NCBI GenBank assembly: GCA_020630515.1
Contig: JAHDBG010000001.1
Coordinates: forward strand, 3,197-67,196
From: Gammaproteobacteria bacterium
GTDB lineage: Bacteria > Pseudomonadota > Gammaproteobacteria > Chromatiales > Chromatiaceae
Length of the DNA: 64,000 nt
Direction of reading: 5' to 3'
Shown: in pieces, positions 23,590 through 64,000 of the stretch
Numbering within the stretch: position 1 is the stretch's first letter
How the letters are laid out: each line of letters begins with the position of its first letter
Notes under the pieces: generated by a model
The model's database searches: none
The model's input: the letters and a program-made list of their open reading frames with translations, nothing else
What the model was told of the DNA's origin: nothing
Program-made: the position numbers and the translations under genes

Positions 23590-23593
23590 AAAT

Positions 23594-24259
23594 TTACTCT
23601 GAATAGCCTTGTGAAAAATCCAATAAACCCAGTCCATACTCTGCAGGGCGTATTGCAGGAATTATTTTCTCAAGTTCTATGGCTTGTTGAGGCCATCGGG
23701 TTTTTATATTGCACCATATCTCTTGTGTATCAGAAGTTCGGTGAATATCATCGATAATTACCAGTTTGGGCTTAAATAACATAAAATAGCAACCAAGGCA
23801 CGCTAATGTGTATTTATAAGCGTGTTGCGGATCATCTATATACAGAATGTCCACATTATCCTGAGATAATATAGATGCAATTCTTGAGATAACTTTGGGA
23901 TTTAATGGGTTTCCTGTAATTGGAATGACACTGTTATACTGGCCCAGTTCGTCTAAATTTCTTTGTTCTTCATCAATAGTCACGATTTTTACATTTGATG
24001 AATTATTGTTTTTAACGCAACCACGCTCAAATGCCCGGGTTGCTGAACCATACCAGGTTCCTATCTCAATAATGTTATTAGCCTGGATTGCATTAGCGAG
24101 GCCAGCAAAAAAAGAAAAATATGCCTGATGGCCAAAATTTTTTAATGGCTCAAAATGATCAGGCCCATATAAAATATCGGTCGTATCAATTTTCTTTCCG
24201 ATTGACCAGGCTCGTTGAATCAATCCTGAAGATTTTTCATTTCCCATAACTAAAATCAC
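23594..24259 (-). CDS. Class I SAM-dependent (family-3 O-methyltransferase-like) methyltransferase
   Basis: Motif I is IIEIGTWYGSAT, and a later block reads ILYIDDPQHAYKY...LVIIDDI. This resembles cation-dependent OMT/CmcI-type enzymes. The start is GTG 24259 or ATG 24247. Confidence 0.55.
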   Translation of the reverse strand: MILVMGNEKSSGLIQRAWSIGKKIDTTDILYGPDHFEPLKNFGHQAYFSFFAGLANAIQANNIIEIGTWYGSATRAFERGCVKNNNSSNVKIVTIDEEQRNLDELGQYNSVIPITGNPLNPKVISRIASILSQDNVDILYIDDPQHAYKYTLACLGCYFMLFKPKLVIIDDIHRTSDTQEIWCNIKTRWPQQAIELEKIIPAIRPAEYGLGLLDFSQGYSE

Positions 24260-26281: not shown

Positions 26282-26297
26282 TTACATCTCACTGTTT

Positions 26298-27452: not shown

Positions 27453-27455
27453 TTG

Positions 27456-28439: not shown

Positions 28440-28483
28440 TTTTTTGTCTGATTTTTTTTCAAATTAGTGAATGATCATGAGGA

Positions 28484-29803: not shown

Positions 29804-29918
29804 TATTTTGTGGGGTGTATGGGGTAGGGTACTGGCGCACGGATAGCATACCAGGTAACGCTTTGTGCAGTGGTACGATCGCCTCTGCGGCTGTTTTCAA
29901 GTAGGTGCCATCGGTGCA

Positions 29919-30698
29919 TCAGGAGGGTGGTACACGTCGCCACTGGATACCGGTGCCAACCCATTGACCAATCAGCTCTTTGAGCATCTTAGCATTATCA
30001 TCCAGGTCATCTGTATCGGGTATCCAGTGCCGCCAGCCACCCTTATAGGGTAGTTTGTAGTCGGTGGCTGCTGGTATCGGGTGCAGACCGGCGTGCTGAA
30101 AGTGTGCCAGTGCGCGGGTCATATGGAATGCTGAAGTGACCAGTAACACGGTCTGAATACCACGCTGGCGCAATAATTCAGTACTGAACTGTGCATTTTG
30201 TTGTGTGTTCCGGCTGCGTTCTTCCAGTAAAATAGCGGATGCCGGAACGCCCAGATCCAACAATAACTGCTGCATGGCAGCAGCTTCTGATATGGTATGT
30301 AATTGTGGATTGCGGCCACCGGATAATATGATCAGCGGCGCCCTGCCCGCATGATACAACTGTGCGCCATACCAGACCCGGTCAGTTGCCTGGTTCAGGT
30401 CCGGCTGCAGATGTTCGCTATCTGGTGGGGTGATGCCACCGCCCAGAATGACCATTGCCTCTGTGCGGGGTAACTGACCCGGTGCCTGTGGTGGAAAAGG
30501 TGCACTGATCTGACCTGCGAGCCAGATGCTGACCGCAGGCACAGACCAGAACCACAGCCAGGCGATGGCCAGGGTGCCAGATAGCCAGGCCAGGCGTCGC
30601 CGACCAGCCAGACCCAGTATTAACCCGATCAGTCCGAGTAGCAGGCTGCTGCCCAGTGGTGACAGGAGTGCAGTTGCTATCTTCGCCAGTATCATCAT
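29919..30698 (-). CDS. DUF218 / YdcF-ElyC family protein
   Basis: N-terminal TM segments precede VILGGG...ILSGG and a [12 protein letters not shown]-type core. The track start at 30740 overlaps accA, so I prefer the ATG at 30698. Confidence 0.7.
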
Positions 30699-30710
30699 CT
30701 GAATGTTGCT

Positions 30711-31667
30711 ATGAATCTTGATTTTCTTGAATTTGAACAACCAATTGCCGAAATGCTGGCAAAGATTGAAGAATTGCGCATGATGGGCAATGACAGCCAG
30801 GTTGACATCCAGGATGAGATTGCACGCCTGGAGGCCAAGAGCAAGGCCCTGACGGCCTCAATCTTCAGTCGGCTGACGCCCTGGCAGACCACCCAATTAG
30901 CGCGTCATCCATTACGCCCTTATACGTTAGATTATATCGAACAGATTGTCGATGATTTTCAGGAGTTGCACGGGGATCGCAGTTTTGCCGATGATCCATC
31001 CATTGTCGCCGGTATCGGTCGATTGGCCGGGAAACCCCTGATGCTGATCGGGCATCAGAAAGGCCGGAATACGCAACAGAAGATCCGGCGTAATTTCGGT
31101 ATGCCACGCCCGGAGGGGTATCGTAAGGCGCTACGCCTGTTACAGATGGCAGAACGTTTCCGATTGCCGGTGGTGACCTTCATTGATACACCCGGAGCCT
31201 ATCCCGGCGTCGGCGCCGAAGAACGTGGTCAGAGTGAGGCGATTGCACGCAATCTGTTTGTGATGGCCGGTTTGCGGACACCGATTGTCGCGGTGGTGAT
31301 TGGTGAAGGTGGTTCCGGTGGTGCACTGGCCATTGGCGTGGCGGATCGAGTTCTGATGCTGCAATATGGCACCTATTCGGTAATTTCACCAGAAGGTTGT
31401 GCGTCTATTTTGTGGAAGGATGCGGCCAAGGCCGATCTGGCCGCTGAAGCGATGGCGATTACCGCATCGGATCTGAAACAACAAGGCTTGATTGATGAGA
31501 TTATTCCGGAGCCGACGGGCGGCGCACACCGTGATTATGCCACTATGGCGAATAATCTGAAGGCCGCCATGGTGGATGCACTGGAGCCACTCGTGACAGA
31601 ACTGCCAGACTTGTTGATGGAAAACCGGCAGAAGCGTTTGTTGGCGTATGGTGCCTTCAGCGCGTAA
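30711..31667 (+). CDS. accA: Acetyl-CoA carboxylase carboxyltransferase subunit alpha
   Basis: [23 protein letters not shown] and [27 protein letters not shown] match the AccA pattern. Confidence 0.95.
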
Positions 31668-48026: not shown

Positions 48027-49673
48027 ATGTATTCGTATCAACCCTTTGATAAGGCATTTGTCAGACGCCGCATTACGCAGTTTCGCGAGCAGATCCGGCG
48101 GCGACTCGACGGCAGCCTGACAGAAGAAGAATTCAAGCCATTCCGGTTGATGAATGGCCTGTATATGCAACTGCATGCGTATATGTTACGGGTCGCGATT
48201 CCGTATGGTACCTTCAGTCCGGCACAACTGCGCCAGATGGCATACATCGCAGATCGCTGGGACAAGGGCTACGGCCACTTCACTACCCGGCAGAACATCC
48301 AGTATAACTGGCCGCAACTGGACAATGTGGCAGATATTCTGGAGGCATTAGCTGATGTTGATATGCATGCGATCCAGACCTCCGGCAATTGCATCCGCAA
48401 CGTCACTGCTGATCATTTTGCCGGAGCGGCGGCAGATGAAATTGAAGATCCACGCCCGACAGCGGAACTGATCCGGCAATGGTCCACGGATCATCCTGAA
48501 TTTATGTTTCTACCGCGTAAATTCAAGATTGCCCTGACGGGCAGTCCGCAGGATCGGGCCGTCACCCGTGCGCATGATATCGGCCTGCAGATGCAGCGTG
48601 ATGCGACCGGTGCTCCGGGCTATACAGTGATTGTGGGAGGCGGTCTGGGACGGACTCCGGTGATCGGTCAGGTGATCCGTGAATTCCTGCCAAAGGCGGA
48701 GCTGTTGCCTTACCTGGAAGCGATTCTCAGCGTCTACAACAGTATCGGACGACGCGATAACCTGTACAAGGCGCGCATCAAAATCACTGTGCAGCAGGTC
48801 GGACTGGAGGCATTTCGCGCACAAGTGGAAGAACGTTTTCAGCGTATCCGACCACACTTCAGCGGCGTGGATCAGGCCTTGTTAACCGAGCTGGAAGCGG
48901 CATTTGCACCACCTGAGTACCAGACAGCGGATACCAGTGCGTTTGATCAGGCCCGGCAACAGGATCCGATCTTCAATGCATGGGCCGGAACGAACCTGCA
49001 CCCGCACAAACATCCGGACTATGCGATAGTCACCGTCTCACTGAAGGCGCACGGGCAAACACCGGGTGATATCAACAGTCACCAGATGCGTGTCCTGGCT
49101 GATCTGGCCGAAACCTGCGGGCACAGCGATCTGCGTGCCAGTCACGAACAAAACCTGATTCTGCCACATGTGCACAAAGGCGATCTGCCGGCATTGCACG
49201 CCGCATTGCGTGAACACGGACTGGCGACCGCGAACATCGGCCTGATCTCGGACATCATTGCCTGCCCGGGAATGGACTATTGTTCGCTGGCGATGGCGCG
49301 CTCCATCCCGATCGCACAACAGATCGCACAACGGTTTGATGAACTGGAACACCAGATTGGCCCGCTGAAGGTCAAGATTTCCGGTTGTATCAATGCGTGT
49401 GGCCATCACCATGTCGGCCATATCGGTATCCTCGGCATGGATCGGGGTGGTGTTGAAAGCTATCAGATTACCCTGGGTGGCGATCACACCGAACAGGCGA
49501 CGCTGGGTAAGCGCACCGGGCAGGGCTTTTCGTACGAAGACATCCTCCCAGCCATGGAACGACTCATACAGGCCTATCTGGCACAGCGCAGCACCGCCGA
49601 CGAGTCTTTTACTGATACCTATCGCCGCCTGGGTCCGGCACCCTTCAAAACAGCTCTGTATGCCCATGTCTGA
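48027..49673 (+). CDS. cysI: Sulfite reductase hemoprotein (NirA/CysI family)
   Basis: It has two nitrite/sulfite-reductase repeats. The siroheme/4Fe-4S cysteine motifs ACPGMDYC and SGCINACGHHHVG are present. Confidence 0.9.
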   Translation: MYSYQPFDKAFVRRRITQFREQIRRRLDGSLTEEEFKPFRLMNGLYMQLHAYMLRVAIPYGTFSPAQLRQMAYIADRWDKGYGHFTTRQNIQYNWPQLDNVADILEALADVDMHAIQTSGNCIRNVTADHFAGAAADEIEDPRPTAELIRQWSTDHPEFMFLPRKFKIALTGSPQDRAVTRAHDIGLQMQRDATGAPGYTVIVGGGLGRTPVIGQVIREFLPKAELLPYLEAILSVYNSIGRRDNLYKARIKITVQQVGLEAFRAQVEERFQRIRPHFSGVDQALLTELEAAFAPPEYQTADTSAFDQARQQDPIFNAWAGTNLHPHKHPDYAIVTVSLKAHGQTPGDINSHQMRVLADLAETCGHSDLRASHEQNLILPHVHKGDLPALHAALREHGLATANIGLISDIIACPGMDYCSLAMARSIPIAQQIAQRFDELEHQIGPLKVKISGCINACGHHHVGHIGILGMDRGGVESYQITLGGDHTEQATLGKRTGQGFSYEDILPAMERLIQAYLAQRSTADESFTDTYRRLGPAPFKTALYAHV

Positions 49674-50415
49674 ACAGAACTCATTCACCGCCCGGGTTGC
49701 CGGGCTGAATAAAGATTATCGTGGCCAGCCGACCCGGCTGTTTATTGAACAGGTGCTGCACGATCCGCGCCTGAGCCGGATCGCACTGGTATCTTCTTTC
49801 GGTGCCGAGTCAGCCGTTCTGCTGCACCTGGTGGCACGCGTGAATCCGGCGACCCCGGTATTGTTTATTGATACCGGCAAGCTGTTTCCGGAAACACTGG
49901 TGTACCAGCAACAACTGACCGAACAGCTCGGGCTGACTGATCTGCGTATCTTAAGACCTGATCCTGAGGCGCTGGCAGCACAGGATCCTGACGGCAGATT
50001 GCACCAGGTAGCACCGAACAGCTGCTGCGAGCTGCGCAAGGTACGCCCGTTACAACAGGCCCTGAGCGGATTTGATGCCTGGATCAGCGGGCGTAAACGG
50101 TACCAGAGTGATACCCGGGCGGACCTGGACTATTTCGAGAATGAGCAGGATCAGCGCATCAAGATCAATCCACTGGCACATTGGACACCGCAGGAACTGG
50201 AAGATTACCGGCAACAACACCAACTGCCAGCTCACCCACTGGTGGTGCAGGGCTATCGGTCTATCGGCTGTGCACCCTGTACCTCACCTGTCGCCGGGCA
50301 CGAAGCCAGCCGGGCTGGCCGCTGGCGTAACAGCACGAAACGTGAGTGTGGTATCCATTTTGTGAACGGACGCATCCAGCGCCTGGACACCACACCGATC
50401 AGCCAGGCCGCATGA
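49660..50415 (+). CDS. cysH: Adenylyl-/phosphoadenylyl-sulfate reductase (Fe-S type)
   Basis: PP-loop-like SFGAESAVLLHL, the CC pair (NSCCELRKV) and the C-terminal GCAPCT indicate APS-reductase-type CysH. The track ORF from 49393 is an upstream read-through inside cysI. Confidence 0.9.
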   Translation: MPMSEQNSFTARVAGLNKDYRGQPTRLFIEQVLHDPRLSRIALVSSFGAESAVLLHLVARVNPATPVLFIDTGKLFPETLVYQQQLTEQLGLTDLRILRPDPEALAAQDPDGRLHQVAPNSCCELRKVRPLQQALSGFDAWISGRKRYQSDTRADLDYFENEQDQRIKINPLAHWTPQELEDYRQQHQLPAHPLVVQGYRSIGCAPCTSPVAGHEASRAGRWRNSTKRECGIHFVNGRIQRLDTTPISQAA

Positions 50416-51385: not shown

Positions 51386-53338
51386 TTACCGAGTGTGTTT
51401 GCCGGAATCATCATGCGCGGTCCTGAAACCGATATAACGGGCGTCAGTCGAAGCAAGCAGTCCGCCGAGAGCCATCAGTACCGCACCCCACCAGATCCAG
51501 CGGATAAACGGCTTGTGGTATAGCCGCACGCCCCAGGCACCGTCAGTCAGTGGCTCGCCGAGCGCAACAAACAGGTCGCGCGTCAACCCCGGGTCAATTG
51601 CGGCTTCGGTCATCGGCATCTTCTGCACGGAATAGATCCGCTTTTCAGGCAACAGCTGCAGAGTGTCGCCATCCGGTGTCTGCACACTGATCCGGCCACG
51701 GCTTGCCTGATAATTGGGCCCGGCATGTTGTGCTACACCCTCAAAGGTAAACACATAACCATCCAGAGTGTAGGTTTCGCCGGGTGCCAGGCGCAGGTCT
51801 TTTTCAGTTGAATAGGTCGTGGTGAGTGTGACACCGATGATAAATACCACGATGCCCAGATGCCCCAGATTCATACCCCAGTAACCACGTGGTAGCTGAC
51901 GCCAATGCGTGGTACTGCGCAGACGCTGGTACAGGCCGCTGAGGGTGGAAGCACCAACCCAGCAGGCCAACGACAGACCAAGTAATGCAGTCCAGGCCCA
52001 GGTTGGTGTGAACAGCCAGGCCCAGACGAAAGCGAGTAATATTGCGAGCAACAGCGGCAGGCGCAGCACCGTACCGATGCGTGCCGGTGTGTCCCTGCCC
52101 CAGCGCAGGTGCGGCCCGATACCGAGCAACAGGATCAGTGGCAGCATTAACATGCTGAACATCCGGTCAAAATAAGGCTGACCGACAGAAATCTTGCCGA
52201 GTTGCAGTGCATCACTCAGCAGTGGATACAGAGTGCCGAGCAGAATCATCGCCGCAGCAACCAGTAGCAGTACATTATTCAGCAGCAACCCGGTCTCACG
52301 TGAGACCGTATGCAACAGAATCTGGCTGCGGATAGTCTGTGCACGCAGGGCATACAACAACAATGAGCCCCCGACCACGGCGACCAGAAACGCGAGGATA
52401 AACACACCGCGCTCCGGGTCGGAAGCAAACGCATGAACTGAGGTCAGTATGCCGGAGCGTACCAGAAAGGTACCGAGCAGGCTGAGTGAGAAGGCACAGA
52501 TCGCGAGCAACAGAGTCCAGGCCTTGAAGGCACCTCGCTTGTCGGTCACCGCAAGCGAATGCATCAGGGCGGTGCCGACCAGCCAGGGCATAAAGGATGC
52601 ATTTTCGACCGGATCCCAGAACCACCAGCCGCCCCAACCCAGTTCGTAATAGGCCCACCAACTGCCCAATGTGATGCCGAGTGTCAGGCAGACCCAGGCC
52701 AGATGTACCCAGGGCCGCATCCAGCGTGCCCAGGCGGCATCAAACTGTCCGCTGAGCATCGCGGCAACTGCGAATGCAAACGGGATCGCAAAGCCGACAT
52801 AGCCCAGATACAGCATCGGCGGATGAAAGATAAGTCCCGGGTCTTGTAATAATGGATTGAGGTCGCGTCCTTCAATTGCTGCCGGCACCAGCCGGGCAAA
52901 CGGATTGGAGGTAAACAGCATAAATGCCAGAAAGCCGACACTGACTAGGCCCAGGACGCTCAGAATACGTGCCAGCAGCGGGGTTGGAATCTGGCGACTG
53001 AAGTAGCTGACTGCACTGGTCCACAGTGCCAGGATCAATGTCCAGAGCAACAGGGAACCTTCGTGTGCACCCCAGACCGCCGAGATCAGATAAGGGACAG
53101 GCAGTTGCGTATTCGCATTGTGGGCGACATACGCGACCGAAAAATCATGGGTGAGAAAGCTGGTGGTCAGCAGACCGAACGCGCCGAGCAGGGCGAGGGT
53201 ATGCAGATGGCTGAGGGGACGGGCGAGGGTAATCCACAGGGGGATATCGCGTTGTGCGCCAATCAGAGGCAGGGTACCCAGTAACAGCGCCAGGATGCAG
53301 GCGAGGCTGAGTAAGAATTGACCAAGTTCAGGAATCAC
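51386..53338 (-). CDS. ccmF: Cytochrome c-type biogenesis protein CcmF (heme lyase family)
   Basis: The WWD motif WGGWWFWDPVENASFMPWL is present. The 650-aa protein is polytopic. The GTG start overlaps the upstream stop (GTGA). Confidence 0.9.
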   Translation of the reverse strand: MIPELGQFLLSLACILALLLGTLPLIGAQRDIPLWITLARPLSHLHTLALLGAFGLLTTSFLTHDFSVAYVAHNANTQLPVPYLISAVWGAHEGSLLLWTLILALWTSAVSYFSRQIPTPLLARILSVLGLVSVGFLAFMLFTSNPFARLVPAAIEGRDLNPLLQDPGLIFHPPMLYLGYVGFAIPFAFAVAAMLSGQFDAAWARWMRPWVHLAWVCLTLGITLGSWWAYYELGWGGWWFWDPVENASFMPWLVGTALMHSLAVTDKRGAFKAWTLLLAICAFSLSLLGTFLVRSGILTSVHAFASDPERGVFILAFLVAVVGGSLLLYALRAQTIRSQILLHTVSRETGLLLNNVLLLVAAAMILLGTLYPLLSDALQLGKISVGQPYFDRMFSMLMLPLILLLGIGPHLRWGRDTPARIGTVLRLPLLLAILLAFVWAWLFTPTWAWTALLGLSLACWVGASTLSGLYQRLRSTTHWRQLPRGYWGMNLGHLGIVVFIIGVTLTTTYSTEKDLRLAPGETYTLDGYVFTFEGVAQHAGPNYQASRGRISVQTPDGDTLQLLPEKRIYSVQKMPMTEAAIDPGLTRDLFVALGEPLTDGAWGVRLYHKPFIRWIWWGAVLMALGGLLASTDARYIGFRTAHDDSGKHTR

Positions 53339-54159
53339 AAAACAGGTTTGGCAGGGTGTGGTTGTAGTGCGACGACGTAAGCCAGATAATCATCCTGAGA
53401 CAAGGCCAGCCCCTGGCAATGCCAGTGTGTGCCGGAGTCGTTCAGTTCCGGTGCACAATGCAGTTGCCAGAGACTGTGATCGGCAGCGGTAAAATGGAAT
53501 TGTTGCAAAGGCAGGTACAGCCCCATGCCACGCGCCTTGATATAGGCTTCTTTCAGGGTCCAGTAGGTATAAAACCGAGTGCATTGCGCGTCACCGGCAT
53601 GATTCAGCACATCCTCCAGCTCCGGACCGGCATATACACTGCGACTGATGCTGACCAGGTCGGTCAATGCGCGCGCGCCTTCGACATCCACACCGATCGC
53701 ACGGTTCAGGCTGACCGCACATCCGATCAGACCCCGGGTATGCGACAGATTAAACTGCAGCCAAGTATGGTCAGGGTTGGCCACTGCCGGTTTACCATAC
53801 CGATTATGGCTATAATACCACTCGTCTGGTGTGATTTCAGCATACCGGCTCAGGCTGGTACGCAAAAAATGATGCGCTGCCTGATATAGCAGACGATCCT
53901 TCGCAAACCGGTAGCGTTGGGCGCGGGTCTGTTCAGCACGGTTGAGTGACGGATAAGTGGCATGGGCTGCCGGGCGCAGCAGATGTATCTGCACCTGATC
54001 CGGTGCCAGGTGTAGCCTGCCATGCAATGGTAGCGGCGCACTGTCGCCGGTGCCGATGATGCTGGTAAAGGCACTGTATTCGCCCTGATCTGTGGTCTGC
54101 CAGGCCAGCAGGGCATGTGCCTGACGCAACCGGTTTGTTAAGGAGAATGGTTCTGTCAT
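53335..54159 (-). CDS. Sfp-type 4'-phosphopantetheinyl transferase
   Basis: IGVDVE and FYTYWTLKEAYIKARG are present. The start is uncertain. ATG 54159 would overlap the divergent murJ start by 13 nt, and the track start at 54261 overlaps further. Confidence 0.78.
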   Translation of the reverse strand: MTEPFSLTNRLRQAHALLAWQTTDQGEYSAFTSIIGTGDSAPLPLHGRLHLAPDQVQIHLLRPAAHATYPSLNRAEQTRAQRYRFAKDRLLYQAAHHFLRTSLSRYAEITPDEWYYSHNRYGKPAVANPDHTWLQFNLSHTRGLIGCAVSLNRAIGVDVEGARALTDLVSISRSVYAGPELEDVLNHAGDAQCTRFYTYWTLKEAYIKARGMGLYLPLQQFHFTAADHSLWQLHCAPELNDSGTHWHCQGLALSQDDYLAYVVALQPHPAKPVL

Positions 54160-55688
54160 TATTTCGCGCTGTCTCAACAGTGGGTTTTTATACCACCTTA
54201 TCACGACTCCTGGGGTTTGTGCGTGATTTAGTATTCGCGCATAGCTTCGGGGCGAGTGCATTCACCGATGCCTTTTTTGTCGCCTTCAGGATCCCGAATT
54301 TTTTACGCCGGTTATTTGCTGAAGGTGCCTTTGCCACGGCCTTTGTGCCGGTCCTGACGGAATACAAGGCGCAACGCAGCCCGGCAGATCTGAAGTCATT
54401 GATTGACCATGTGGCCGGTACCCTCGCGCTGATATTATGTCTGATCTCTGTTCTGGGGATATTGCTGGCTCCGGTGATTATCGGTCTGTTTGCGATTGGC
54501 TGGGTATCGGATGACGCTGCCGGGGAGAAGCTGGCACTGGCGGGCGAGATGTTACGCCTGACCTTTCCGTATCTGTTTTTTATCTCACTGACCGCATTTG
54601 CCGGTGGGGTGATGCAGGTACACAACCGGTTTGCTGCACCGGCGTTTACCCCGGTGTTGCTCAATCTGTCCCTGATCGGTTGTGCATTATGGCTCAGTCC
54701 GTGGCTGGAACAGCCCGTGGTGGCCCTGGCCTGGGGGGTGCTGATTGCGGGGGTCAGCCAGTGTGTCTTTCAGATTCCGTTTCTGGCACAACTGAAGCTG
54801 CTGCCGCGTTTCCGGATCTCGTTCCGGCATCCGGGGGTGCGCCGTATTCTGCGCCTGATGCTGCCCGCCTTATTTGCGGTCTCCATCACTCAGATCAATC
54901 TATTGCTGGATACGGTCCTGGCGTCTTTTCTGGTCAGTGGCAGCATCTCCTGGCTGTATTATTCAGATCGCCTGGTTGAATTTCCGCTCGGTATCTTAGG
55001 GGTGGCGATGAGCACGGTGCTGTTGCCGCGCTTAGCGCGTGATCAGGCCGGGCAGGCCCCGGCTGAATTTGCTCGTAACCTGGACTGGGGGTTGCGGCTG
55101 ATCGTATTCTGCGGTGTGCCTGCTGCGGCTGGCCTGGTAATACTGGCCGGGCCGATCATTGCAACCCTGTTTCTGTCAGATGTCTTTGTGGCGCACGATG
55201 TGCAGATGGCCCGGCTCAGCCTGATGGCCTATGCCAGTGGTCTGCTGGCCTTTCTGCTGATCAAGGTGCTGGCTGCCGCCTGTTATGCACAGCAGGATAC
55301 CCGCACCCCGGTACGTATTGGCATGATCGCCATGTCGGTGAATATGGTGTTTAACCTTCTGCTGATTGTGCCACTGCAACATACCGGCCTGGCACTGGCG
55401 ACCAGCCTGTCGGCCTGCCTGAATGCATTTCTGTTATGGCGTAGTCTGCGTACTGTGTACCAGCCGGTAGCCGGTTGGGGATTATTCTGCGCGCGTATTG
55501 TGATTGCGGGTGGCGTAATGAGCCTGTTGCTGGTGTGGCTGGCACCACCGCTGTCAGTGTGGCTGGATCAGGCCCTGTGGCAACGTGTGTTGTCGCTGTT
55601 GTTATGGATACCACTGGGGATAGCGACTTATATCGTGACCTTGTTGCTCAGCGGTATGCGCTGGCGACATATCTCACACTCAGCCTGA
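54147..55688 (+). CDS. murJ: Lipid II flippase MurJ
   Basis: TLSRLLGFVRDLVFAHSFGAS...FFVAFRIPNFLRRLFAEGAF is the MurJ N-terminus. An AGGAG RBS sits at 54141-54145. Confidence 0.9.
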   Translation: MVLSLFRAVSTVGFYTTLSRLLGFVRDLVFAHSFGASAFTDAFFVAFRIPNFLRRLFAEGAFATAFVPVLTEYKAQRSPADLKSLIDHVAGTLALILCLISVLGILLAPVIIGLFAIGWVSDDAAGEKLALAGEMLRLTFPYLFFISLTAFAGGVMQVHNRFAAPAFTPVLLNLSLIGCALWLSPWLEQPVVALAWGVLIAGVSQCVFQIPFLAQLKLLPRFRISFRHPGVRRILRLMLPALFAVSITQINLLLDTVLASFLVSGSISWLYYSDRLVEFPLGILGVAMSTVLLPRLARDQAGQAPAEFARNLDWGLRLIVFCGVPAAAGLVILAGPIIATLFLSDVFVAHDVQMARLSLMAYASGLLAFLLIKVLAAACYAQQDTRTPVRIGMIAMSVNMVFNLLLIVPLQHTGLALATSLSACLNAFLLWRSLRTVYQPVAGWGLFCARIVIAGGVMSLLLVWLAPPLSVWLDQALWQRVLSLLLWIPLGIATYIVTLLLSGMRWRHISHSA

Positions 55689-55731: not shown

Positions 55732-57783
55732 CTATCCGGAGGTAACCTGAGTATGCCAGAGCTGGGCGTATAAGCCATCTGTCGCTAACAGTTTCTGGTG
55801 CGTTCCCTGCTCCACAATGTGTCCCTGGTCCAGTACAAATATTTTATCGGCCTTGACGACAGATCGCAGATGGTGCGAAATTGAAATCACAGTACGTGCT
55901 TTGCTCAGGGCGTGAATAGTGGCGTCAACAGCAGCGGCTGTTTCGGCATCTAGGCTACTGGTGGCTTCATCCAGAATCAGGATAGCAGGGTTGCAAAGCA
56001 TGGCACGTGCTATAGCAATACGTTGCTTTTGTCCGCCAGAGAGGCGTCCACCGGCTTCACCAGCATTGGTTTCATAGCCTTCAGGTAGTGTCATGATAAA
56101 GTCGTGCAGTTCGGCAGCTTGTGCGACCCTGATCACGTCTGTGTTTGTGGCATCAGGCTTAACGATGCGGATGTTATTCAGGATACTGGTATTGAAGATG
56201 AAGGTTTCCTGCAGGACGATGCCCATTTGCTGACGCAGTGAGGTTTGTGTGATGTCACGTACATCCATCCCATCAATGGTGATTCGCCCTGTACCGACTT
56301 CATAAAAGCGCAGCAGTAGATTGAACAGGGTGCTCTTGCCTGCACCACTGGGGCCCACAAAGGCCACAAACTGACCACTTTCGATGCTGAAGTCCACCTG
56401 GTTCAGTTGATAGCCTGTCTTGGTATAGCCGAATGAAACATGATCAAAATGAATCACCTGACAGAAAGCGGGTAGTTCAATGGCGGCAGGTGCATCCACA
56501 ATCTCCGCCTGCTTCCGGAATAACAGGTCTACCCGGCGTAGTCCGACACCAGACATAATCAATGAGTGAAGCCGGTTGCGGAACAGTTGGCGAACATTCT
56601 GATGTGCCGCCATCTGAGCTACCATGTAGGAGACGAGTGCCCCGACTGACAGGTATCCACCACTGAGCAGCAACAGGCCCGCCGAAACAGAGATCAGTTG
56701 GGCTGAGAATAGTGAGATGACCGAGGAACTCTCAAACATCGCCCGGCTGAAAAGCGATTCGGTGGTCTTGTCTTCCAGTTTGTTCAACTCTCCGAGAAAA
56801 CAGTCCTGGATGAATGGATGCGTGCTGAAGCTCTTGACGACTGGTTGTGCCCGCACCCCTTCCTGCACTGCGTGAATCATCAGTGCTTCCTGGTTTTTGA
56901 GCGCAAAGTTGGCTTGTGCAACGCGAGGTGAGAACTCCCGCAGAATGTATGCCATCAGAGGTAGGGAGAGCAGGCTGATCAGAGCCATTTGCCAGGAAAG
57001 CCAGAACATGAAGGCGATGCTTACGCCAAGCGTCAACAGGTCTACCATACTTGGCAATAATTGTGCGCCCATGCCCATCCTGACATACAACATATCGGAA
57101 GAAAAACGCGCCAGAATATCACCCAGCCTGGTCTTTTTATAAAAACCTGGTGAAAGCCTTTGCAGGTGTTCAAAGATATCGTACTGAATATCCTTCACAA
57201 TCCGACTACCTAGGCGGGCGGAGATTCTTTCACCCACTATAGTCGCCAGCACCACGACAGGAAAACTGATCAGAAGTGCTTGCAGGATGGGGCCGATTGC
57301 AGCAAGTCCACCAGCCGTGCCAACTCCGTCTATAATCACCTTTAGTGCATAGGCAAATGTGGTCTGATAGAGGCCAAAAACCAGTAAACCTGCGCCGCTG
57401 AACAGTGCTACACCCCAGTATGGACGCCAGTATTTTGAGATATAGCGTCTGAGCAGACGTAAATCGCTCCTGATCGAATATTCCGTTTCCTTGGTGACCT
57501 GTCTCGTGGGCTGGTCATGCGTGATTTGTTTCTCTTCCCACGGAGATAAACTTGTTTTAAATAACGGTTCCTTGGTCTGGCGTGAAATCGGGACAACCTG
57601 ATCCAGCTTCAGCTTTTTGCTAATCGTTATAATCTGATCATATAAGGAAAAGCGGGTTTTGTGTTCGTGCTCCTGTGGAGGAGATATGGTCTCAATTAAT
57701 TTTTTCTTGCGACAATTCGCCTGGTACTTTAGTGATCCCAGCGTGACAATGCCTCCAGTCACAATTAAGGCGGAAATCAACAT
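55732..57783 (-). CDS. ABC exporter (fused permease and ATPase, MsbA-like) with a ~100-aa N-terminal extension
   Basis: Walker A GPSGAGKST, signature LSGGQKQR and Walker B ILILDEATS are present, with a six-TM-type N-terminal half. Confidence 0.9.
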   Translation of the reverse strand: MLISALIVTGGIVTLGSLKYQANCRKKKLIETISPPQEHEHKTRFSLYDQIITISKKLKLDQVVPISRQTKEPLFKTSLSPWEEKQITHDQPTRQVTKETEYSIRSDLRLLRRYISKYWRPYWGVALFSGAGLLVFGLYQTTFAYALKVIIDGVGTAGGLAAIGPILQALLISFPVVVLATIVGERISARLGSRIVKDIQYDIFEHLQRLSPGFYKKTRLGDILARFSSDMLYVRMGMGAQLLPSMVDLLTLGVSIAFMFWLSWQMALISLLSLPLMAYILREFSPRVAQANFALKNQEALMIHAVQEGVRAQPVVKSFSTHPFIQDCFLGELNKLEDKTTESLFSRAMFESSSVISLFSAQLISVSAGLLLLSGGYLSVGALVSYMVAQMAAHQNVRQLFRNRLHSLIMSGVGLRRVDLLFRKQAEIVDAPAAIELPAFCQVIHFDHVSFGYTKTGYQLNQVDFSIESGQFVAFVGPSGAGKSTLFNLLLRFYEVGTGRITIDGMDVRDITQTSLRQQMGIVLQETFIFNTSILNNIRIVKPDATNTDVIRVAQAAELHDFIMTLPEGYETNAGEAGGRLSGGQKQRIAIARAMLCNPAILILDEATSSLDAETAAAVDATIHALSKARTVISISHHLRSVVKADKIFVLDQGHIVEQGTHQKLLATDGLYAQLWHTQVTSG

Positions 57784-57786: not shown

Positions 57787-58563
57787 TTAAGTGCCTCGGA
57801 GATTTTTTGCCAGGGGGACTAAACATGATGAGCCGACAGCCTCCTGAATCAGGGCGCGGGCTAGTGCAAGCGTCGGATCAATCATCCGCAGTCCGCACAG
57901 CAGATGTGCATCAACGGCTGGCGGTAACTCTGTACAGGCTAATAGCACGGCGTCCGCATGGCGTTCCTTCAGGTGCATCACCCCGCGACCCAGCAGGCGT
58001 CTGGCCTGCTTTGATGCCGGGTGGCAGATCGCCTTAATGCCCCAGATGGGATCATAGATTGCCGGATGCATCACTTCTGCCTGCATGGTTGAGGCAGGCA
58101 GGATCAGGTCTATGCCTAATTGTGCAAATGCGACCTCATAGACGCCGGACTGATATGTACCATTCGTTCCGAACAGGCCGGGACGCTGAATGTCCGGGTA
58201 ATGTTTCTGCACAAACTGCACGGTCTCATCCGCCATATTGAGCAGCCTGATGCCCAGTGCCGCAGCACGTTCCTGAAGTGGCTCAAAGATGGTCGGGGCG
58301 TGTGCGGTGTTACACGGCATACCGACAACAGCAGCACCAGCGCGTGCCACCGATTCCAGTACATGCGATAGCGGGCCTGAGGGGTTATCAGGCAACTGTC
58401 CTGACAGGAAGGCACTTCGATCCGGAATCTGATGTGGGAATGAGTGCAGAATAACCGGAATATGTTCCTGATCGGTGCTGGCCTGAGTCTGGGTGTGTAT
58501 CTTCTGTATCAGATCAATGTCCGCAAATGGCCCAATGCCGCCGATGATGCCGATAGGTTGCAT
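57787..58563 (-). CDS. Aspartate/glutamate-racemase-family amino-acid racemase
   Basis: IGIIGGIGPFA is present, with two catalytic cysteine contexts, MPCNTAHA and LLACTELP. Confidence 0.8.
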   Translation of the reverse strand: MQPIGIIGGIGPFADIDLIQKIHTQTQASTDQEHIPVILHSFPHQIPDRSAFLSGQLPDNPSGPLSHVLESVARAGAAVVGMPCNTAHAPTIFEPLQERAAALGIRLLNMADETVQFVQKHYPDIQRPGLFGTNGTYQSGVYEVAFAQLGIDLILPASTMQAEVMHPAIYDPIWGIKAICHPASKQARRLLGRGVMHLKERHADAVLLACTELPPAVDAHLLCGLRMIDPTLALARALIQEAVGSSCLVPLAKNLRGT

Positions 58564-58568: not shown

Positions 58569-61500
58569 CTACTCAGACAGCAGCTCAGCAAGCCGACTGT
58601 CCGGCTGCGTAATAATCTGTGCCAGCAGCTTCTGGTATTGTGCCAGCAATTGCACCATGCGATCAGCCTGAAATAAATCTGCCTTATAAGTCAGTTTCAG
58701 ACGGAAATCTGCGTCACTGTCGTGATCATTAAACTCGGTCTCGTCCACTTCTCCGACCAGTAAGCTGAAGTCGAACATGGAGGTCTGATGATTAGTGAAT
58801 GTTATCGGCTCAACGGTCAGGCCCGGTAGGCGAAGCGGGTGTTTTTCCAGATTGACCATATTGAACCACACTGTAAACACAGGTTCGCGATTCAGATCAC
58901 GTTGTGGGTGCAGCTCGGCCATGACCTTCTCAAAGGGGACTTCCTGGTGGGTATAGGCCCCTAAGACTACCTGACGCACCCGATGTAACAAATCACGGAA
59001 GGTGAGATCTCCCTGCAAGGTTGTACGCAGCACCAGCGGGCTGACGAAATACCCAAAGATGTCTTCTACTCCGGCACGTGTGCGACCGGCGTTCGGCGAA
59101 CCAATAATGATATCTTCCTGTCCCGTTTTGTGACAGAGCAAGGCCTTGAAGGCGGTCAGCATCGTCATGAACAGCGTACTGTTTTCCTGCTGGCTCAGTT
59201 GTCTGAGTGCCGCCATCAGCGGTTTAGTCAGATAGGCTGATTGCTTCTCTCCCCTGAAGGAAGGCTGTGCGGGCTGTGGATAATCTTGTGGAAAGGTGAG
59301 AACAGGAATCTCCCCTCCCAGATGCTCCTTCCAGTAGCCCAACGATCTGGTCAGCACGTCACCCTGCAGCGTGTGCCGCTGCCAGTAAGCAAAATCGGCG
59401 TACTGCAGCGACAGCCCGGGTAAGGAAGCCGGTCTTCCTTGTGAGAAGTCCGCATACAGCACAGATAACTCCCGGAACAGCCTTCTTCTTGACCAGCCGT
59501 CAGTAATAATGTGGTGGAACGTAGACAGGAGAATATGCTCCTGTGCATCTAAACGTAACAGGGTGATACGAAATAGCGGTCCCTGTGCCAGATCAAAGGG
59601 ATGGTTGGCATTGTCGTGTTTCAACCGCCTGATTTCGCGTGCCTGATCTGCTTGTGACAAACCCTGTAAGTCAACCAGTGGCAGGCTGACATTCTCTGCA
59701 GGATGGATACGCTGGATCGCTTGTCCGTCCACCACCGGGAAGGTCGTGCGTAGGCCTTCGTGACGATGTACCAGGAAGGATAGACTTTTTTCCAGTGCCT
59801 CGACGTTGAGGGGGCCGCTGAGATGCCGGAACTTTGAGATCTTATAGCTCACGCTCTCGCCTGCCAGCTGTTGCCAGCTCCACAGCCGTTCCTGCGCAAA
59901 TGAAAGCGGTATCTGACGATCCCGTGGCACGGGTTGGATTGGCTCGGTACGCTGAGAAACCGCGCCCTTCTGACGGGTCTCAGCCAGGTCGGTAATCCGC
60001 TGATAGCCAAAGCGCTCAGCCATTTGCCAAGTGATGTCGCCTAAAAAATCGACCTGATACGTCTCTTTCCATTTGTCGGCGACGCCGGGATCAATACGTT
60101 TGTGCTGATGGAACTTGGGATCACCAATCTGCCTTGATCCTGAATGAATACCATCCGTCATACGTGTCTTTTTGTCTTTATGTGGCTCTAACATTTCTGT
60201 GTCAAAGTCTATGTTTAAAAACTGACAAATGCCTTGGGCCGCGTTGTGAGGGTCTTGCACCAGGTCTTCGAAGCGCAGGCGGTGTTGACGATGCGCCGGA
60301 ATCTGTTCAAAGAAATTGAGGATATTCTGCTGGCTAATCAGCCAAGTCAGTTCAGCAATCTCGCGTCTGGTAAATTCATTGTCCTTGCCGAATCGATTAC
60401 CCAGCAAGTCGAATCTAGCCTTTTCAAACGAGTGAATCATGCCATAAGGGTGACGCACCAGATGGATATACCGGGCGTTCTCAAAATACATCTCGGCACG
60501 CGCAAGTGCATCCGGGTACAAGGCATACGAAGAGGTCTTATCCACCAGAATCTGCTGTCCGATGGCTTGTTGCAGCACACGATAAAATTCCTGTGTGGTC
60601 AGCTGTTGTTGCTCGTATTTCTGCATCAGGCGCGTTGCCTCTGCGCCATCACAGTCGTGTACCTGCATCAAGGCGCGGATCGTGCCCTCCAGCGAAAAGC
60701 GGGCAACCTCTTTACGTTGTGCCAATGTCTCAAACCGTAAGAGCGACAGGGTCGGGGGAGAAAATAATTGTGGGTGGCCACCCAGCATCACGCGCAACAA
60801 GGTCGTTCCGGACCGATTCGGGGCCAGAACGAAAACGGCAGGTGGGTTTTTCGTCGGGAAACGCTTGCTATCATCCAGCCACGATGGCAACGTTTGCCGT
60901 GCCTGAGCGACCTTCGTGGCATCAATGCCGGATGTGAGTGGCTCTGCTGTGGCGTCTGAGGCAAATTCAATACCTGAAACTTGGGCTGCAGCATCCCGAT
61001 AGTGTTGCTTGAGGTAGCAGGCCAGTTCCGCCACGGTAGGCGCACTGAATATCGCGGCAATCTGCACGATCTCGCCAAGTGCTTCCTGCAGAGTATTGGT
61101 CAGCCGCATCGCACTGAGCGAATGTCCTCCCAGTTCAAAGAAATCATCATGGATGCCGATTGCCTCAATGCCAAAGAAATCCTGCCAGATATCGGCCACA
61201 AATTGTTCCAGTTTATCTCTGGGTGCAGAATAGGCCTGGGCCAGTATTGGTCGTTCATATCCTGACTTGGCTGGCGCATCGTCTTCCGCCGCAGGCTGCG
61301 AAGAAAGCACCGGGCAGGCATGCGCCTCAATGCTGGCCTGCAAATCCTGACCAGAGATGATCACCTGCGGCCAGGTTGCTCGCAGGATACGACTGAACAG
61401 CTCAGCCTGTTCACTATCTGACGGCGCCTCCTGTTCTGTACACCGGATATCGCGCCAGGCAGACCAGTTGACTGCCAGAACGAGTGTCTCATCATCATGT

Positions 61501-64000
61501 GATTTGCAGTGTGCGAAGGTGTCCAGAAAGATACTGGCAGCCGTATCGTCAGCCAGTTCTGTGGCAGGCAGAATGGAGGCGATGGAAGACTCCAGTATCC
61601 GGAACTCGGGAAAATACGGCTGCAACACCGCATCCAGTACCCGCGTGCCCTGCATCGTGATGGCTAACACATGATCTGTGTCTGTCTTCGTTCTCGCACC
61701 CTGCACGACACCGTTGATCTGGCCAAACCTGGTGAAGGTCTGCGCCACGACCTCTTCCATTTGTGCCTGATCGGTCACATCAGCCTGGATGGGCAGCACG
61801 GTTGCCCCCAGCGCCTCCAGTGCCTGTATCTGGCGAGCATGCTGGCTGATGTCGTCAGACATGATCAGCGTCAGCCTGGCCTGTACCTGTTGGGCCAGAT
61901 ATCGGGCGGCGACAAGAGCAAGCCCGGACAGATTGCCAGTGATCAGATACACACCGCCTGTCCGTAAACACGGGGCCTGCGCAGACTCTGTCAGCCGGAC
62001 CGGCTCAAAGAAGGGTACCCAGCGGTGTCTGCCGCGATACGCGACGACAGGATCAGATGTACTGCTACCCGTCAGCTCCGTCAGCAACTGCCTGACCACA
62101 GGCTGTTGTTGCTGACTTTCCGCCTCAGGCAAAATAATATCGATGTTACGGCAGTGAATGTTGGGATATTCGGTCGGAATGACCCGAACTGGCCCCAATA
62201 TCGTGGACTTTTCAGCAGATAGCGGTTCTTCCCCGGTCACGCTCCGGAGATGATTAGAAACAACCACAATCTGAACCTGAGAGGCAGCATCATCAGAACC
62301 CTGACTCTGGTTGCCGGATGCCTGTGCCAGATACCACAGGCTGTCAAACCCACTTGCCTGCTGACGCGCCATCCACTCCGGATCAGACCGGATGGTGGAC
62401 GTAAGGCTCCACAAATGCACGATCGTGCCGGGCTTCCTGCCTGCATGACGCCATTCGCTGATCAATCGTTGGTAATCATCCGGCTGTTGCGGATTCAGAG
62501 TGTAGGCACGTTCATTGATTTTTTCGAAGCCCACCCCGATTTGCACCTGAATGACCTCCTGTCCCGACTGTTCCAGCGCTTGGCGTAATTCAGTCCCCAC
62601 CCCACAATCATCCATGAACAACACATACCCGGATGGCACAGAGTTGTTTACTGCGCCTGTCAAGGTTGATTGCTTCCATGCCGGCCGATAAAACCAGTCG
62701 GCCAGATCGGTCTTGCGCTGTGTCTCCCGGGACAACTGTTTTTTATTTGGGGCCTTAAATAGCTGGCGTTCATAAGGATAGGTCGGTAAGGGCAAACGGT
62801 AACGTGCTTCGTGCTGATAAAACCCTCGCCAGTCAACGGTGCCACCCGCCTGCCACAGCTGCCCCAACGTGTTCAGTAAGAACGCGACATCTGATTGCGT
62901 CTTGCGGGGATGATGCAGGGAAGCGAGGATCACCTGGCCTGCTAATCCTGCCTGCGTTGGGACAACCTCAGGATGTTGTTTCGCCAGCGTACACAGGGTG
63001 TTGCCAGGACCTACCTCTAACCAGATTTGTTCAGGCTCTGCCGATAAAGTGTGAATCCCATCCGAGAAACGCACCGGTTGCCGCAGATGCCTGGCCCAAT
63101 AAGCAGGGTCCGTGGCCTCTGTTGCCGTTATCCAGGTACCGGTGACATTAGACAGGAACGGAATTTGTGGTGCGTGCCGCGAAACCTGTTGCACTTCTGC
63201 CATGAACGCGCCCATCATCGGCTCCATCATCTGGGAATGGAACGCATGGGACGTATGCAATAGACGATGTGGCGTCCCGGTGGAGCACAGTCTTGCCTGC
63301 AATTCGTCTATCGCCTGCGGCAGGCCTGAGACAACTGAAATAGCAGGGCCATTGCTCGCAGCCAGCGAAAGACCCAGTCCGGCTAATGCCTCAACTTCAT
63401 CAGCAGGTAACGATACCACCAGCATCTTGCCTGCCGGTAATTCCTGCATCATCTTGCCACGCACACAGACCAGCCGGAGTGCGTCTGCGAGATCAAAGAC
63501 ACCCGCCAGCGTGGCCGCTACATATTCGCCAATACTGTGACCGATCATCGCCTTCGGTCGGACTCCCCAGGCCATCCACAACTGAGCTAACGCATACTCA
63601 ATGACAAACAGGGCCGGTTGGGTAACAGCGGTCTGTCGTAGCTGCTGGCGGGCGGCATCAACTTGTTCAACATCGGGGTATAAAATATGACGCAAATCAA
63701 GCCCTGACAGAGGCAGCAGAATGGTTGAACAATGATCAATCTGTGCGCGGAATGTGGGTTCTGTCTCATACAGTTCACGCCCCATATTCACATATTGCGC
63801 CCCTTGCCCCGAGAACATAAAGGTCACGGGGCGGCTGGCAGACGCCGGATAAGCAGCCTGTCCAGTGGCCGAGGCTAACGAGGAGATTGCCTCATGCACA
63901 TCACGACACACCAGAATGCGCCGATGAGTAAAGCCCTCACGACCGACCTGTAGCGTATAGGCCACATCCGCGAGATTGATCTCCGGGTTTGCTTTGCAAT
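58569..64000 (-). CDS. Hybrid PKS/NRPS megasynthase, 3' portion: AT, KR-like, PCP-type carrier, sulfotransferase, condensation domain. The 5' end lies beyond the window.
   Basis: The frame stays open to the window edge; upstream codons read ...CKANPEINLADVAYTLQVGRE, a KS-AT linker. Domain motifs are listed in the five domain features below. Confidence 0.9.
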   Translation of the reverse strand, partial: CKANPEINLADVAYTLQVGREGFTHRRILVCRDVHEAISSLASATGQAAYPASASRPVTFMFSGQGAQYVNMGRELYETEPTFRAQIDHCSTILLPLSGLDLRHILYPDVEQVDAARQQLRQTAVTQPALFVIEYALAQLWMAWGVRPKAMIGHSIGEYVAATLAGVFDLADALRLVCVRGKMMQELPAGKMLVVSLPADEVEALAGLGLSLAASNGPAISVVSGLPQAIDELQARLCSTGTPHRLLHTSHAFHSQMMEPMMGAFMAEVQQVSRHAPQIPFLSNVTGTWITATEATDPAYWARHLRQPVRFSDGIHTLSAEPEQIWLEVGPGNTLCTLAKQHPEVVPTQAGLAGQVILASLHHPRKTQSDVAFLLNTLGQLWQAGGTVDWRGFYQHEARYRLPLPTYPYERQLFKAPNKKQLSRETQRKTDLADWFYRPAWKQSTLTGAVNNSVPSGYVLFMDDCGVGTELRQALEQSGQEVIQVQIGVGFEKINERAYTLNPQQPDDYQRLISEWRHAGRKPGTIVHLWSLTSTIRSDPEWMARQQASGFDSLWYLAQASGNQSQGSDDAASQVQIVVVSNHLRSVTGEEPLSAEKSTILGPVRVIPTEYPNIHCRNIDIILPEAESQQQQPVVRQLLTELTGSSTSDPVVAYRGRHRWVPFFEPVRLTESAQAPCLRTGGVYLITGNLSGLALVAARYLAQQVQARLTLIMSDDISQHARQIQALEALGATVLPIQADVTDQAQMEEVVAQTFTRFGQINGVVQGARTKTDTDHVLAITMQGTRVLDAVLQPYFPEFRILESSIASILPATELADDTAASIFLDTFAHCKSHDDETLVLAVNWSAWRDIRCTEQEAPSDSEQAELFSRILRATWPQVIISGQDLQASIEAHACPVLSSQPAAEDDAPAKSGYERPILAQAYSAPRDKLEQFVADIWQDFFGIEAIGIHDDFFELGGHSLSAMRLTNTLQEALGEIVQIAAIFSAPTVAELACYLKQHYRDAAAQVSGIEFASDATAEPLTSGIDATKVAQARQTLPSWLDDSKRFPTKNPPAVFVLAPNRSGTTLLRVMLGGHPQLFSPPTLSLLRFETLAQRKEVARFSLEGTIRALMQVHDCDGAEATRLMQKYEQQQLTTQEFYRVLQQAIGQQILVDKTSSYALYPDALARAEMYFENARYIHLVRHPYGMIHSFEKARFDLLGNRFGKDNEFTRREIAELTWLISQQNILNFFEQIPAHRQHRLRFEDLVQDPHNAAQGICQFLNIDFDTEMLEPHKDKKTRMTDGIHSGSRQIGDPKFHQHKRIDPGVADKWKETYQVDFLGDITWQMAERFGYQRITDLAETRQKGAVSQRTEPIQPVPRDRQIPLSFAQERLWSWQQLAGESVSYKISKFRHLSGPLNVEALEKSLSFLVHRHEGLRTTFPVVDGQAIQRIHPAENVSLPLVDLQGLSQADQAREIRRLKHDNANHPFDLAQGPLFRITLLRLDAQEHILLSTFHHIITDGWSRRRLFRELSVLYADFSQGRPASLPGLSLQYADFAYWQRHTLQGDVLTRSLGYWKEHLGGEIPVLTFPQDYPQPAQPSFRGEKQSAYLTKPLMAALRQLSQQENSTLFMTMLTAFKALLCHKTGQEDIIIGSPNAGRTRAGVEDIFGYFVSPLVLRTTLQGDLTFRDLLHRVRQVVLGAYTHQEVPFEKVMAELHPQRDLNREPVFTVWFNMVNLEKHPLRLPGLTVEPITFTNHQTSMFDFSLLVGEVDETEFNDHDSDADFRLKLTYKADLFQADRMVQLLAQYQKLLAQIITQPDSRLAELLSE
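58596..59918 (-). other. C-terminal condensation domain
   Basis: LSFAQERLW is present. The core HHIITDGWS has its His-His codons at 59511-59516. The protein ends after this domain, with no A domain following. Confidence 0.85.
59991..60848 (-). other. Embedded sulfotransferase domain
   Basis: The 5'-PSB-like loop is VLAPNRSGTTLL, and the 3'-PB-like block is YIHLVRHPYGMIHS. Confidence 0.75.
61011..61223 (-). other. Carrier protein domain, NRPS PCP-type
   Basis: The motif DDFFELGGHSLSAMRL is present, with the phosphopantetheine Ser codon at 61119-61121. Confidence 0.85.
61476..61961 (-). other. Ketoreductase-like domain, apparently inactive
   Basis: The Rossmann motif reads TGNLSGLA instead of TGGLGGLG. 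By hand alignment the catalytic Lys position is Thr (ITMQGTRVL) and the catalytic Tyr position is Asp (ELADDTAAS versus GQxNYAAAN). Confidence 0.6.
62931..63827 (-). other. Acyltransferase domain, predicted malonyl-CoA specific
   Basis: FSGQGAQY is present. The active site is GHSIGEY, with the Ser codon at 63534-63536. The HAFH specificity motif is present. Confidence 0.85.

Follow-up and report, generated by a model that had tools for sequence, protein, structure and literature searches.

A terminal polyketide synthase module with a degenerate ketoreductase, a CurM-type sulfotransferase and a C-terminal condensation domain in a gammaproteobacterium

The window analysed here is a stretch of 64,000 nucleotides from a Gammaproteobacteria bacterium of the Chromatiaceae (GenBank assembly GCA_020630515.1, contig JAHDBG010000001.1, positions 3,197 to 67,196), and it ends in the 3' part of a polyketide synthase (PKS) gene (58569-64000, minus strand). 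The last module of this PKS combines a ketoreductase (KR) predicted to be inactive with a carrier domain, a sulfotransferase (ST) and a terminal condensation (C) domain. The minus-strand frame (window:58572-63998:-) is uninterrupted over 1809 residues and open at the window edge. An earlier note, made from the letters of the window, had looked to upstream sequence for the rest of the gene, and this is provided by a protein of 2272 residues (P0001) in a public collection, encoded on a 69,655-bp NCBI contig and 100% identical to the fragment. Residue 1 of the fragment is residue 464 of P0001, which begins directly with the ketosynthase (KS), 463 residues further upstream. In other words, the fragment is the 3' 5.4 kb of the gene, with the KS domain and the start codon located about 1.39 kb past position 64000. 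The GTG at 63965, given as a start in the list of open reading frames (ORFs), is an artefact, because P0001 starts further upstream.

The complete protein has the order KS-AT-KR-carrier-ST-C, where AT is the acyltransferase. The order that the earlier note had read in the window, from the AT through a KR-like region, a GGHSL carrier, the ST and the C domain to the stop codon, is present on the minus strand, with each motif where the note had placed it. Two further proteins share the architecture: P0002 (84% identity) and P0003/P0362 (74%). The TAG stop codon (58569-58571) stands at a position common to all three orthologs, i.e., the window protein and these two, and the proteins all end at the same residue; the ATG of the next gene follows 5 nt downstream. 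A frameshift, a hidden thioesterase (TE) or a continuation of the gene at 58569 is ruled out by this common end.

The domain assignments were made with Pfam, in residues of the fragment. After the KS-AT linker (1-43), the AT (59-339; Acyl_transf_1, PF00698, 7e-52; 62982-63824) carries the motifs GHSIGEY (63522-63542) and HAFH (63237-63248); from the latter we take it to be specific for malonyl units, as presumed from established PKS knowledge. The KR (61449-62603) consists of a structural, N-terminal subdomain (466-623) and a catalytic subdomain (682-850), the latter with a weak match (1.8e-24). It is followed by a carrier domain (PP-binding, 933-995; 61014-61202) with the motif FFELGGHSL, as in nonribosomal peptide synthetases (NRPSs), its Ser lying in 61116-61130. 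The ST (Sulfotransfer_3, 1053-1266; 60000-60854) and the C domain (Condensation, 1361-1806; 58572-59918) had been assigned by motif reading in the earlier note, and the domain models back both, with E-values of 1.7e-30 and 1.2e-96, respectively. The KS of P0001 shows the motifs ACSTSL, HGTAT and GHLNKAAG with the Cys, His and His residues in place. The module thus has the KS, the AT (GHSxG, HAFH) and the carrier Ser of a modular type I PKS extension module. In the orthologs the upstream NRPS ends in an adenylation domain and a peptidyl carrier (A-PCP), and this carrier would feed the KS.

The KR was aligned to the solved KRs of MlnE and PksJ and to 11 relatives. In the window protein, the catalytic Lys is replaced by Thr (LAITMQG, 61647-61667), the Tyr by Asp and the Asn by Ser (ADDTAAS, 61533-61553), and ten residues are deleted after GVVQGA (61686-61712). 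The cofactor site is altered as well: the glycine motif reads TGNLSGLA (61914-61943), and the Arg for the NADPH phosphate is absent from LIMSDD (61851-61868), where MSD occupies the position of GRS in the relatives. All three orthologs lack this Arg as well as the final Gly of the cofactor motif, and the KR of the clade ancestor was probably cofactor-blind already. The window KR is predicted to be dead; having lost its catalytic residues, it would form no β-hydroxyl group, and the module would leave the β-keto group unreduced. In CurM and the olefin synthases (OLS), an active KR supplies the β-hydroxyacyl chain on an acyl carrier protein (ACP); the KR described here does not correspond to such an enzyme.

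The 74% ortholog served as outgroup for polarising changes along the lineages. In the catalytic KR subdomain, 23 substitutions are specific to the window protein and 9 to the sister ortholog, whereas the other domains are symmetric (window/sister: AT 12/12, ST 9/7, C 27/23). The KR has therefore been released from selection in the window lineage. The ratio of nonsynonymous to synonymous substitution rates (dN/dS; Nei-Gojobori, between the three orthologs) was 0.01-0.03 for the carrier, 0.05-0.07 for the ST, 0.11-0.12 for the AT, 0.12-0.17 for the C domain and 0.11-0.34 for the KR. The carrier is the most constrained part of the protein, and the ST is its most constrained catalytic domain.

These values bear on the possibility that the whole pathway is decaying in this genome, the loss of the KR being the first step of pseudogenisation and the pathway having no defined product. 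The excess of window-specific KR substitutions and the deletion would fit, as would a Ser at a highly conserved Asn position of the C domain, described below. However, the frame of 2272 residues is intact, the AT, carrier, ST and C domain evolve symmetrically with low dN/dS, and the cofactor-site changes are common to all orthologs, so that KR inactivity probably predates their split. Decay of the pathway is hardly probable on this evidence.

The ST is homologous to the solved ST domains of CurM (PDB 4gbm, E 6.6e-69) and of an OLS (4gox, E 3.8e-61). It keeps the loop for 3'-phosphoadenosine 5'-phosphosulfate (PAPS), PNRSGTTLL (60795-60821), the equivalent of Lys133 in VDKT (60525-60545), and RHPYGMIHS (60429-60455). 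As family-conserved, we defined the 83 ST columns that are at least 85% conserved among 132 other homologs. The window clade keeps 78 of these 83, including the equivalents of R39, S40, G41, T43, K133, R161, H162, P163 and S169. The deviations are Glu60, Tyr248, which is His here (93% conserved elsewhere) and might conceivably be a relocated base, and three milder positions. The SPPELHLL segment of CurM reads SPPTLSLL (60738-60761) in the window protein and both orthologs. Thus the position of Glu60, a Glu in 96% of the 132 other STs, is Thr in all three; the Thr codon, ACC at 60750-60752, is at least two mutations away from any Glu codon. The position of CurM His62 is Ser here, and it is variable across the family. 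Glu60, which shares this segment with His62, is reportedly the proposed catalytic base of CurM. The clade therefore has an ST of the CurM/OLS structural family with its PAPS site and without Glu60.

Decay of the ST as a whole was considered and is ruled out by the 78 conserved columns, the low dN/dS and the symmetric lineage changes. As the ST stayed constrained while the KR decayed, its function does not seem to hinge on a KR-made hydroxyl group. The absence of a β-hydroxyl, of a TE and of the catalytic Glu together indicates that this ST cannot carry out CurM-type chemistry. In our reading, the ST may still bind PAPS and have a changed role, which is the least certain step of the interpretation. 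Either the ST would sulfonate an acceptor for which no general base is required, or its role would be non-catalytic and linked to the carrier and C domains.

The earlier note had considered an off-loading step that acts on a possibly sulfated intermediate. In its full form, the KR would make a β-hydroxyacyl-carrier, the ST would sulfonate it, and the C domain would release the sulfated or eliminated chain as an amide or ester. The architecture resembles KR-ACP-ST of CurM and OLS with the C domain replacing the TE, the catalytic tetrad of the KR is kept in orthologs L081, L082 and L083, and the logic probably exists elsewhere: in P0054 the KR looks intact, the ST contains the Glu, and C-A-PCP comes after it. 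The residues described above do not agree with such a path in the window protein, whose KR lacks the Lys, Tyr and Asn and carries the deletion. The Arg for the NADPH phosphate, the last Gly of the cofactor motif and the ST Glu are gone in all three orthologs, and the ST remained constrained during the decay of the KR (9 against 23 lineage-specific changes). This part of the note is not borne out, and a sulfated intermediate of this type is improbable here.

A second explanation regards the ST as a non-catalytic relic, serving between the carrier and the C domain as a structural or docking element or as a regulatory element that binds PAPS or its product PAP; the module would then be effectively KS-AT-carrier-C. 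It would account for the clade-wide loss of the near-invariant Glu60 and for the want of a canonical substrate behind a dead KR. In addition, carrier-ST-C moves as a block in many NRPSs, and the C domain may need the ST for positioning. On the other hand, every presumed PAPS contact is among the 78 positions kept, and the dN/dS of 0.05 lies under those of the AT and the C domain; a mere spacer would not be expected to hold a cofactor site. The inactive KR of the same protein shows what relaxation looks like. We regard a relic as a possible but rather unlikely explanation.

Both the protein and the assembly line end with the C domain, whose HHIITDG motif (59496-59516) is intact. The C5 motif is atypical (FGYFVSPLVLR, 59025-59057): its Asn, 98% conserved, is replaced by Ser in the window protein and L081. 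The domain differs at 10 of 90 family-conserved columns, and Arg268 to His and Gln354 to Thr are clade-wide changes. Nevertheless, the dN/dS given above indicates a functional domain. The closest solved structures are Txo2 (4e-84), Txo1 and TycC, all ordinary C domains that form peptide bonds. The oddity of this C domain is its terminal position, not its sequence.

As neither a TE nor an A-PCP partner is found in cis or in the orthologous cluster of L083, the C domain appears to be the only candidate for the release catalyst. The description of the module in the earlier note, as a terminal one ending in a C domain, stands: it is the last module, and no TE or A-PCP follows. In CurM and OLS a TE, which carries out hydrolysis and decarboxylative elimination, comes directly after the ST; here the C domain and the stop codon do, and the orthologous clusters contain no TE. 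With the intact HHxxxDG motif at the end of the last protein, and no TE, reductase (R) domain or downstream A-PCP in the cluster, release by the terminal C domain, which we infer from the architecture, is well supported and is the best reading of its role.

The C domain could instead belong, as the upstream half, to a split NRPS module with its A-PCP(-TE) part encoded elsewhere in the genome, or it could re-use a carrier of the NRPS. It is most like an ordinary elongation C domain, and of the 80 genome loci that hold its closest homologs, nearly all have an A domain next in cis. This arrangement is very improbable: in three orthologs the protein ends after the C domain and a racemase gene follows, and the L083 cluster, lying between glnE and lpxK, contains neither an additional A-PCP nor a TE.

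The cluster is most completely seen in L083, a 28-kb contig with the 74% ortholog. The order there is glnE, an ORF of 48 residues, an NRPS of 2810 residues, the PKS, the racemase and lpxK. The NRPS has the domains A-T-C-A-T-C-A-T (T, thiolation domain), and no epimerization (E) domain, TE, reductase or further A-PCP was found between glnE and lpxK. In L081 the order is PKS, racemase and ABC exporter, followed by pyruvate dehydrogenase genes. In the window, the gene 5 nt downstream of the PKS (57787-58563, minus strand) belongs to the Asp/Glu racemase family, and such a gene likewise follows the PKS in both orthologs. It passes the NCBI asp_race subfamily model (130 bits; cutoff 93). The NRPS probably receives a D-acidic amino acid from this enzyme. 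Among equivalog models, the racemase scores best with that of the cysteate racemase CuyB, at 175 bits under the cutoff of 190; cysteate, a sulfonated amino acid, is a remote prospect for a building block in this cluster, which encodes a PAPS-binding domain too. The next gene (55732-57783, minus strand) encodes an ABC exporter, a fused permease/ATPase like MsbA and HepA. It also follows the racemase in L081 and is absent from L083.

Stachelhaus codes were extracted from the L083 NRPS against GrsA-PheA, whose own code (DAWTIAAICK) was recovered correctly as a control. The codes are DIRHFGFQAK (A1), DGMHVGGVTK (A2) and DARHFSFMIK (A3). The D-x-R-H pattern of A1 and A3 would resemble that of the microcystin synthetase A domains for D-methylaspartate (D-MeAsp; McyB) and D-Glu (McyE); a literature search for the codes of the microcystin A domains found nothing. 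The pattern fits the conserved racemase, and D-acidic residues in the peptide are a reasonable but unproven assumption.

The flanks of the cluster differ across the three genomes: glnE and lpxK in L083, pyruvate dehydrogenase genes in L081, and murJ, a phosphopantetheinyl transferase (PPTase) gene and ccmF in the window. Since different housekeeping genes flank it in each case, the cluster looks like a mobile island acquired by horizontal transfer; in L083 its GC content is 50%, against 34-43% in the flanks. The PPTase (53335-54261, minus strand) is of the Sfp/HetI type, with 110 bits to the HetI model, which is below the cutoff, and an uncertain start codon. It is a possible accessory gene; murJ lies between it and the cluster.

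From these observations, the following path is proposed, to which we assign a little better than an even chance: a tripeptidyl chain undergoes one malonate extension and no reduction, and the C domain releases it, while the ST acts in a non-canonical role. The NRPS A-T-C-A-T-C-A-T, seen in the ortholog and presumed here, would build a tripeptide, probably with D-acidic residues from the racemase, and would hand it to the KS of the PKS protein. One malonate extension by the catalytically plausible KS, the AT and the carrier would give a 3-oxo acyl thioester, as the KR is dead. The C domain would then off-load the chain by forming an amide bond. The most likely route would be intramolecular lactamisation onto a backbone nitrogen, that is, a closure of the tetramate or pyrrolinone type as for JamQ. 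Alternatively, the C domain might capture a free amine or amino acid.

This logic has two parallels. JamQ of jamaicamide is a condensation-like protein and a proposed pyrrolinone cyclase (PMC2799420), and in dolastatin 15 the equivalent closure is assigned to the TE of Dol15F, the nucleophile being the nitrogen of a secondary amide (PMC13643306). Both JamP/JamQ and Dol15F share with the present system the hand-over from NRPS to PKS, a single unreduced malonate extension and release by lactamisation. However, JamQ is a stand-alone protein and is unproven, Dol15F uses a TE, and the enols are O-methylated in those pathways; the likeness to JamQ is one of logic only.

Several points weigh against the proposed path. 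The two other orthologs keep the Lys, Ser, Tyr and Asn of the KR, and only the cofactor residues are altered in them (TGxxxGxD; xSD). The ancestral pathway may thus have used a β-hydroxyl, and in the window copy the pathway could have been crippled recently. The C domain is like normal elongation C domains, whose acceptor is an aminoacyl-PCP, and bears no mark of a cyclase. The role of Glu60 as the catalytic base is itself a proposal, reportedly that of McCarthy et al. 2012. Finally, the NRPS gene of this genome lies beyond the window and did not appear in word-index protein searches with the ST or with the A-PCP fragment of the ortholog, both of which gave short proteins only; the content of the cluster was deduced from the 74% ortholog.

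Within the proposed path of unreduced extension and release by the C domain, one specific role of the ST can be put forward, although it is distinctly unlikely: the ST might be repurposed to O-sulfonate the acidic enol(ate) of the β-keto thioester, or of the tetramate or pyrrolinone formed by the C domain. An enol oxygen is already deprotonated and needs no base, which would explain the loss of Glu60 with the PAPS site under selection. Such an acceptor would also explain why the KR could decay with no effect on the ST. If this were so, the pathway would yield a small peptide with a 4-sulfooxy-pyrrolinone at its end, the sulfated analogue of the 4-methoxy-pyrrolinones in dolastatin 15 and jamaicamide, and the carrier-ST-C unit would be a previously unseen off-loading unit.

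To our knowledge, the CurM-type ST, which always comes with a KR and a TE, is the textbook example of how polyketide off-loading uses sulfonation to create a leaving group. The ST of the window is homologous to it and stands directly after a carrier preceded by KS-AT-KR, with the PAPS loop, Lys133 and RHPY...S retained. The differences are the C domain in place of the TE, the inactive KR, Thr for Glu60 and Ser at the position of His62. Decarboxylative alkene formation as in CurM and OLS is not expected here, and the module does not belong to the CurM/OLS system, despite an ST of that structural family.

The premise of the earlier note, that an assembly-line ST is followed by a TE, holds for CurM and OLS and is otherwise incomplete: the ST of cyanopeptolin and internal carrier-ST-C blocks depart from it. 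In the cyanopeptolin (oci) cluster of Planktothrix, the ST is embedded in an NRPS, and the sulfate is kept in the product in a sulfated O-methyl-glyceric acid side chain (PMC2533009). Like the ST described here, it is an assembly-line ST whose product passes on via C domains and not a TE. It differs in having a glyceric-acid starter as its substrate, at the outset of an NRPS whose line ends in a TE; the two were compared by description only. Apart from the oci operon, no account of an ST-C or NRPS-ST mechanism turned up in literature searches.

Blocks with the same order of carrier (FFxLGGxS), ST and C domain are found in uncharacterised NRPSs and hybrids (for example P0054/L084, L001-L003, P0369 and P0384), so that an ST followed by a C domain is not unique to the window clade. 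Their identity to the window protein over ST-C is 38-47%, and the best ST-C match in a scan of genome contigs is 44%. P0054/L084 has KS-AT-KR-ACP-ST-C-A-PCP amid a line of alternating PKS and NRPS modules, and metagenome-assembled genomes of Chloroflexi carry A-PCP-ST-C-A-PCP. In these blocks the C domain is internal, being followed by A-PCP, and the ST Glu is kept; in the window protein the block is terminal, stands after a PKS module and lacks the Glu. What sets the clade apart is the combination of a PKS context and a terminal C domain with a dead KR and an ST that is highly conserved but lacks the Glu.

An exhaustive search of cluster representatives found internal carrier-ST-C in at least 13 of the top 150, and some of these proteins also end in carrier-ST-TE; the search was dominated by giant NRPSs with many C domains, and this frequency is a lower bound. 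The A domain before the ST is of the Ser type in 7 of 22 cases, of the Thr type in 3 and of the Tyr type in 3 (13 of 22 together). The Thr code was confirmed by the Oci table (PMC2533009). This suggests an uncharacterised NRPS logic in which carrier-bound Ser or Thr is O-sulfonated, to give either a retained sulfate or, by elimination, dehydro-residues or enamides. CurM-type STs of large NRPSs were seen at L001:6515-15532, L002:3446-15616, L003, L066 (Sphaerothrix gracilis) and L084:10001-18748, and further in P0369, P0374, P0383, P0384, P0391, P0425, P0486, P0505 and P0508. All of them keep the catalytic Glu; carrier-ST-C is internal and carrier-ST-TE terminal. A separate set of about 100 stand-alone proteins of around 430 residues (P0121-P0240), consisting of a carrier and a CurM-type ST and mostly from cyanobacteria (e.g., Anabaena sp. 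PCC 7108 and Sphaerospermopsis), came from a word-index protein search with the ST alone, which returned short proteins only. In three of them (P0132, P0192 and P0207) Gln replaces the catalytic Glu.

The end of the assembly line can also be compared with microcystin and nodularin biosynthesis (McyE-McyF-McyH), where genes for an Asp/Glu-family racemase and an ABC exporter come after a hybrid PKS/NRPS gene with a C domain at its end. Here, however, an aminotransferase domain, an Adda-type polyketide, further NRPS modules and a TE are all missing.

Three other features were observed in the surroundings. A PAPS reductase gene of the CysH type lies at 49393-50415 on the plus strand, about 8 kb from the PKS gene; it probably serves ordinary sulfur assimilation, outside the cluster. 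Downstream of the orthologous cluster in L081, a bacterial protein of 133 residues with a profilin domain (PF00235) is encoded beside htpG (L081:16388-16789). The window region 23000-30800 (minus strand) is an island of low GC content (36-42%, against about 55%), which encodes a CmcI-like methyltransferase, a P-type ATPase, a class I/II aminotransferase, an HMGL-like aldolase/synthase, an ATP-grasp enzyme and a DUF218 protein. The island resembles a small biosynthetic cluster in its own right, gained by horizontal transfer.

In this clade, a member of the CurM/OLS ST family is under strong selection where leaving-group chemistry is impossible, and its function would show a second role for the family. 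The terminal carrier-ST-C unit, once understood, would be a new release unit for engineering, and the cluster, consisting of two synthetase genes and a racemase only, is small enough for heterologous expression. Beyond this clade, carrier-ST-C and carrier-ST-TE are widespread in NRPSs behind Ser, Thr and Tyr modules, and they point to an unexplored route to sulfated or dehydrated residues.

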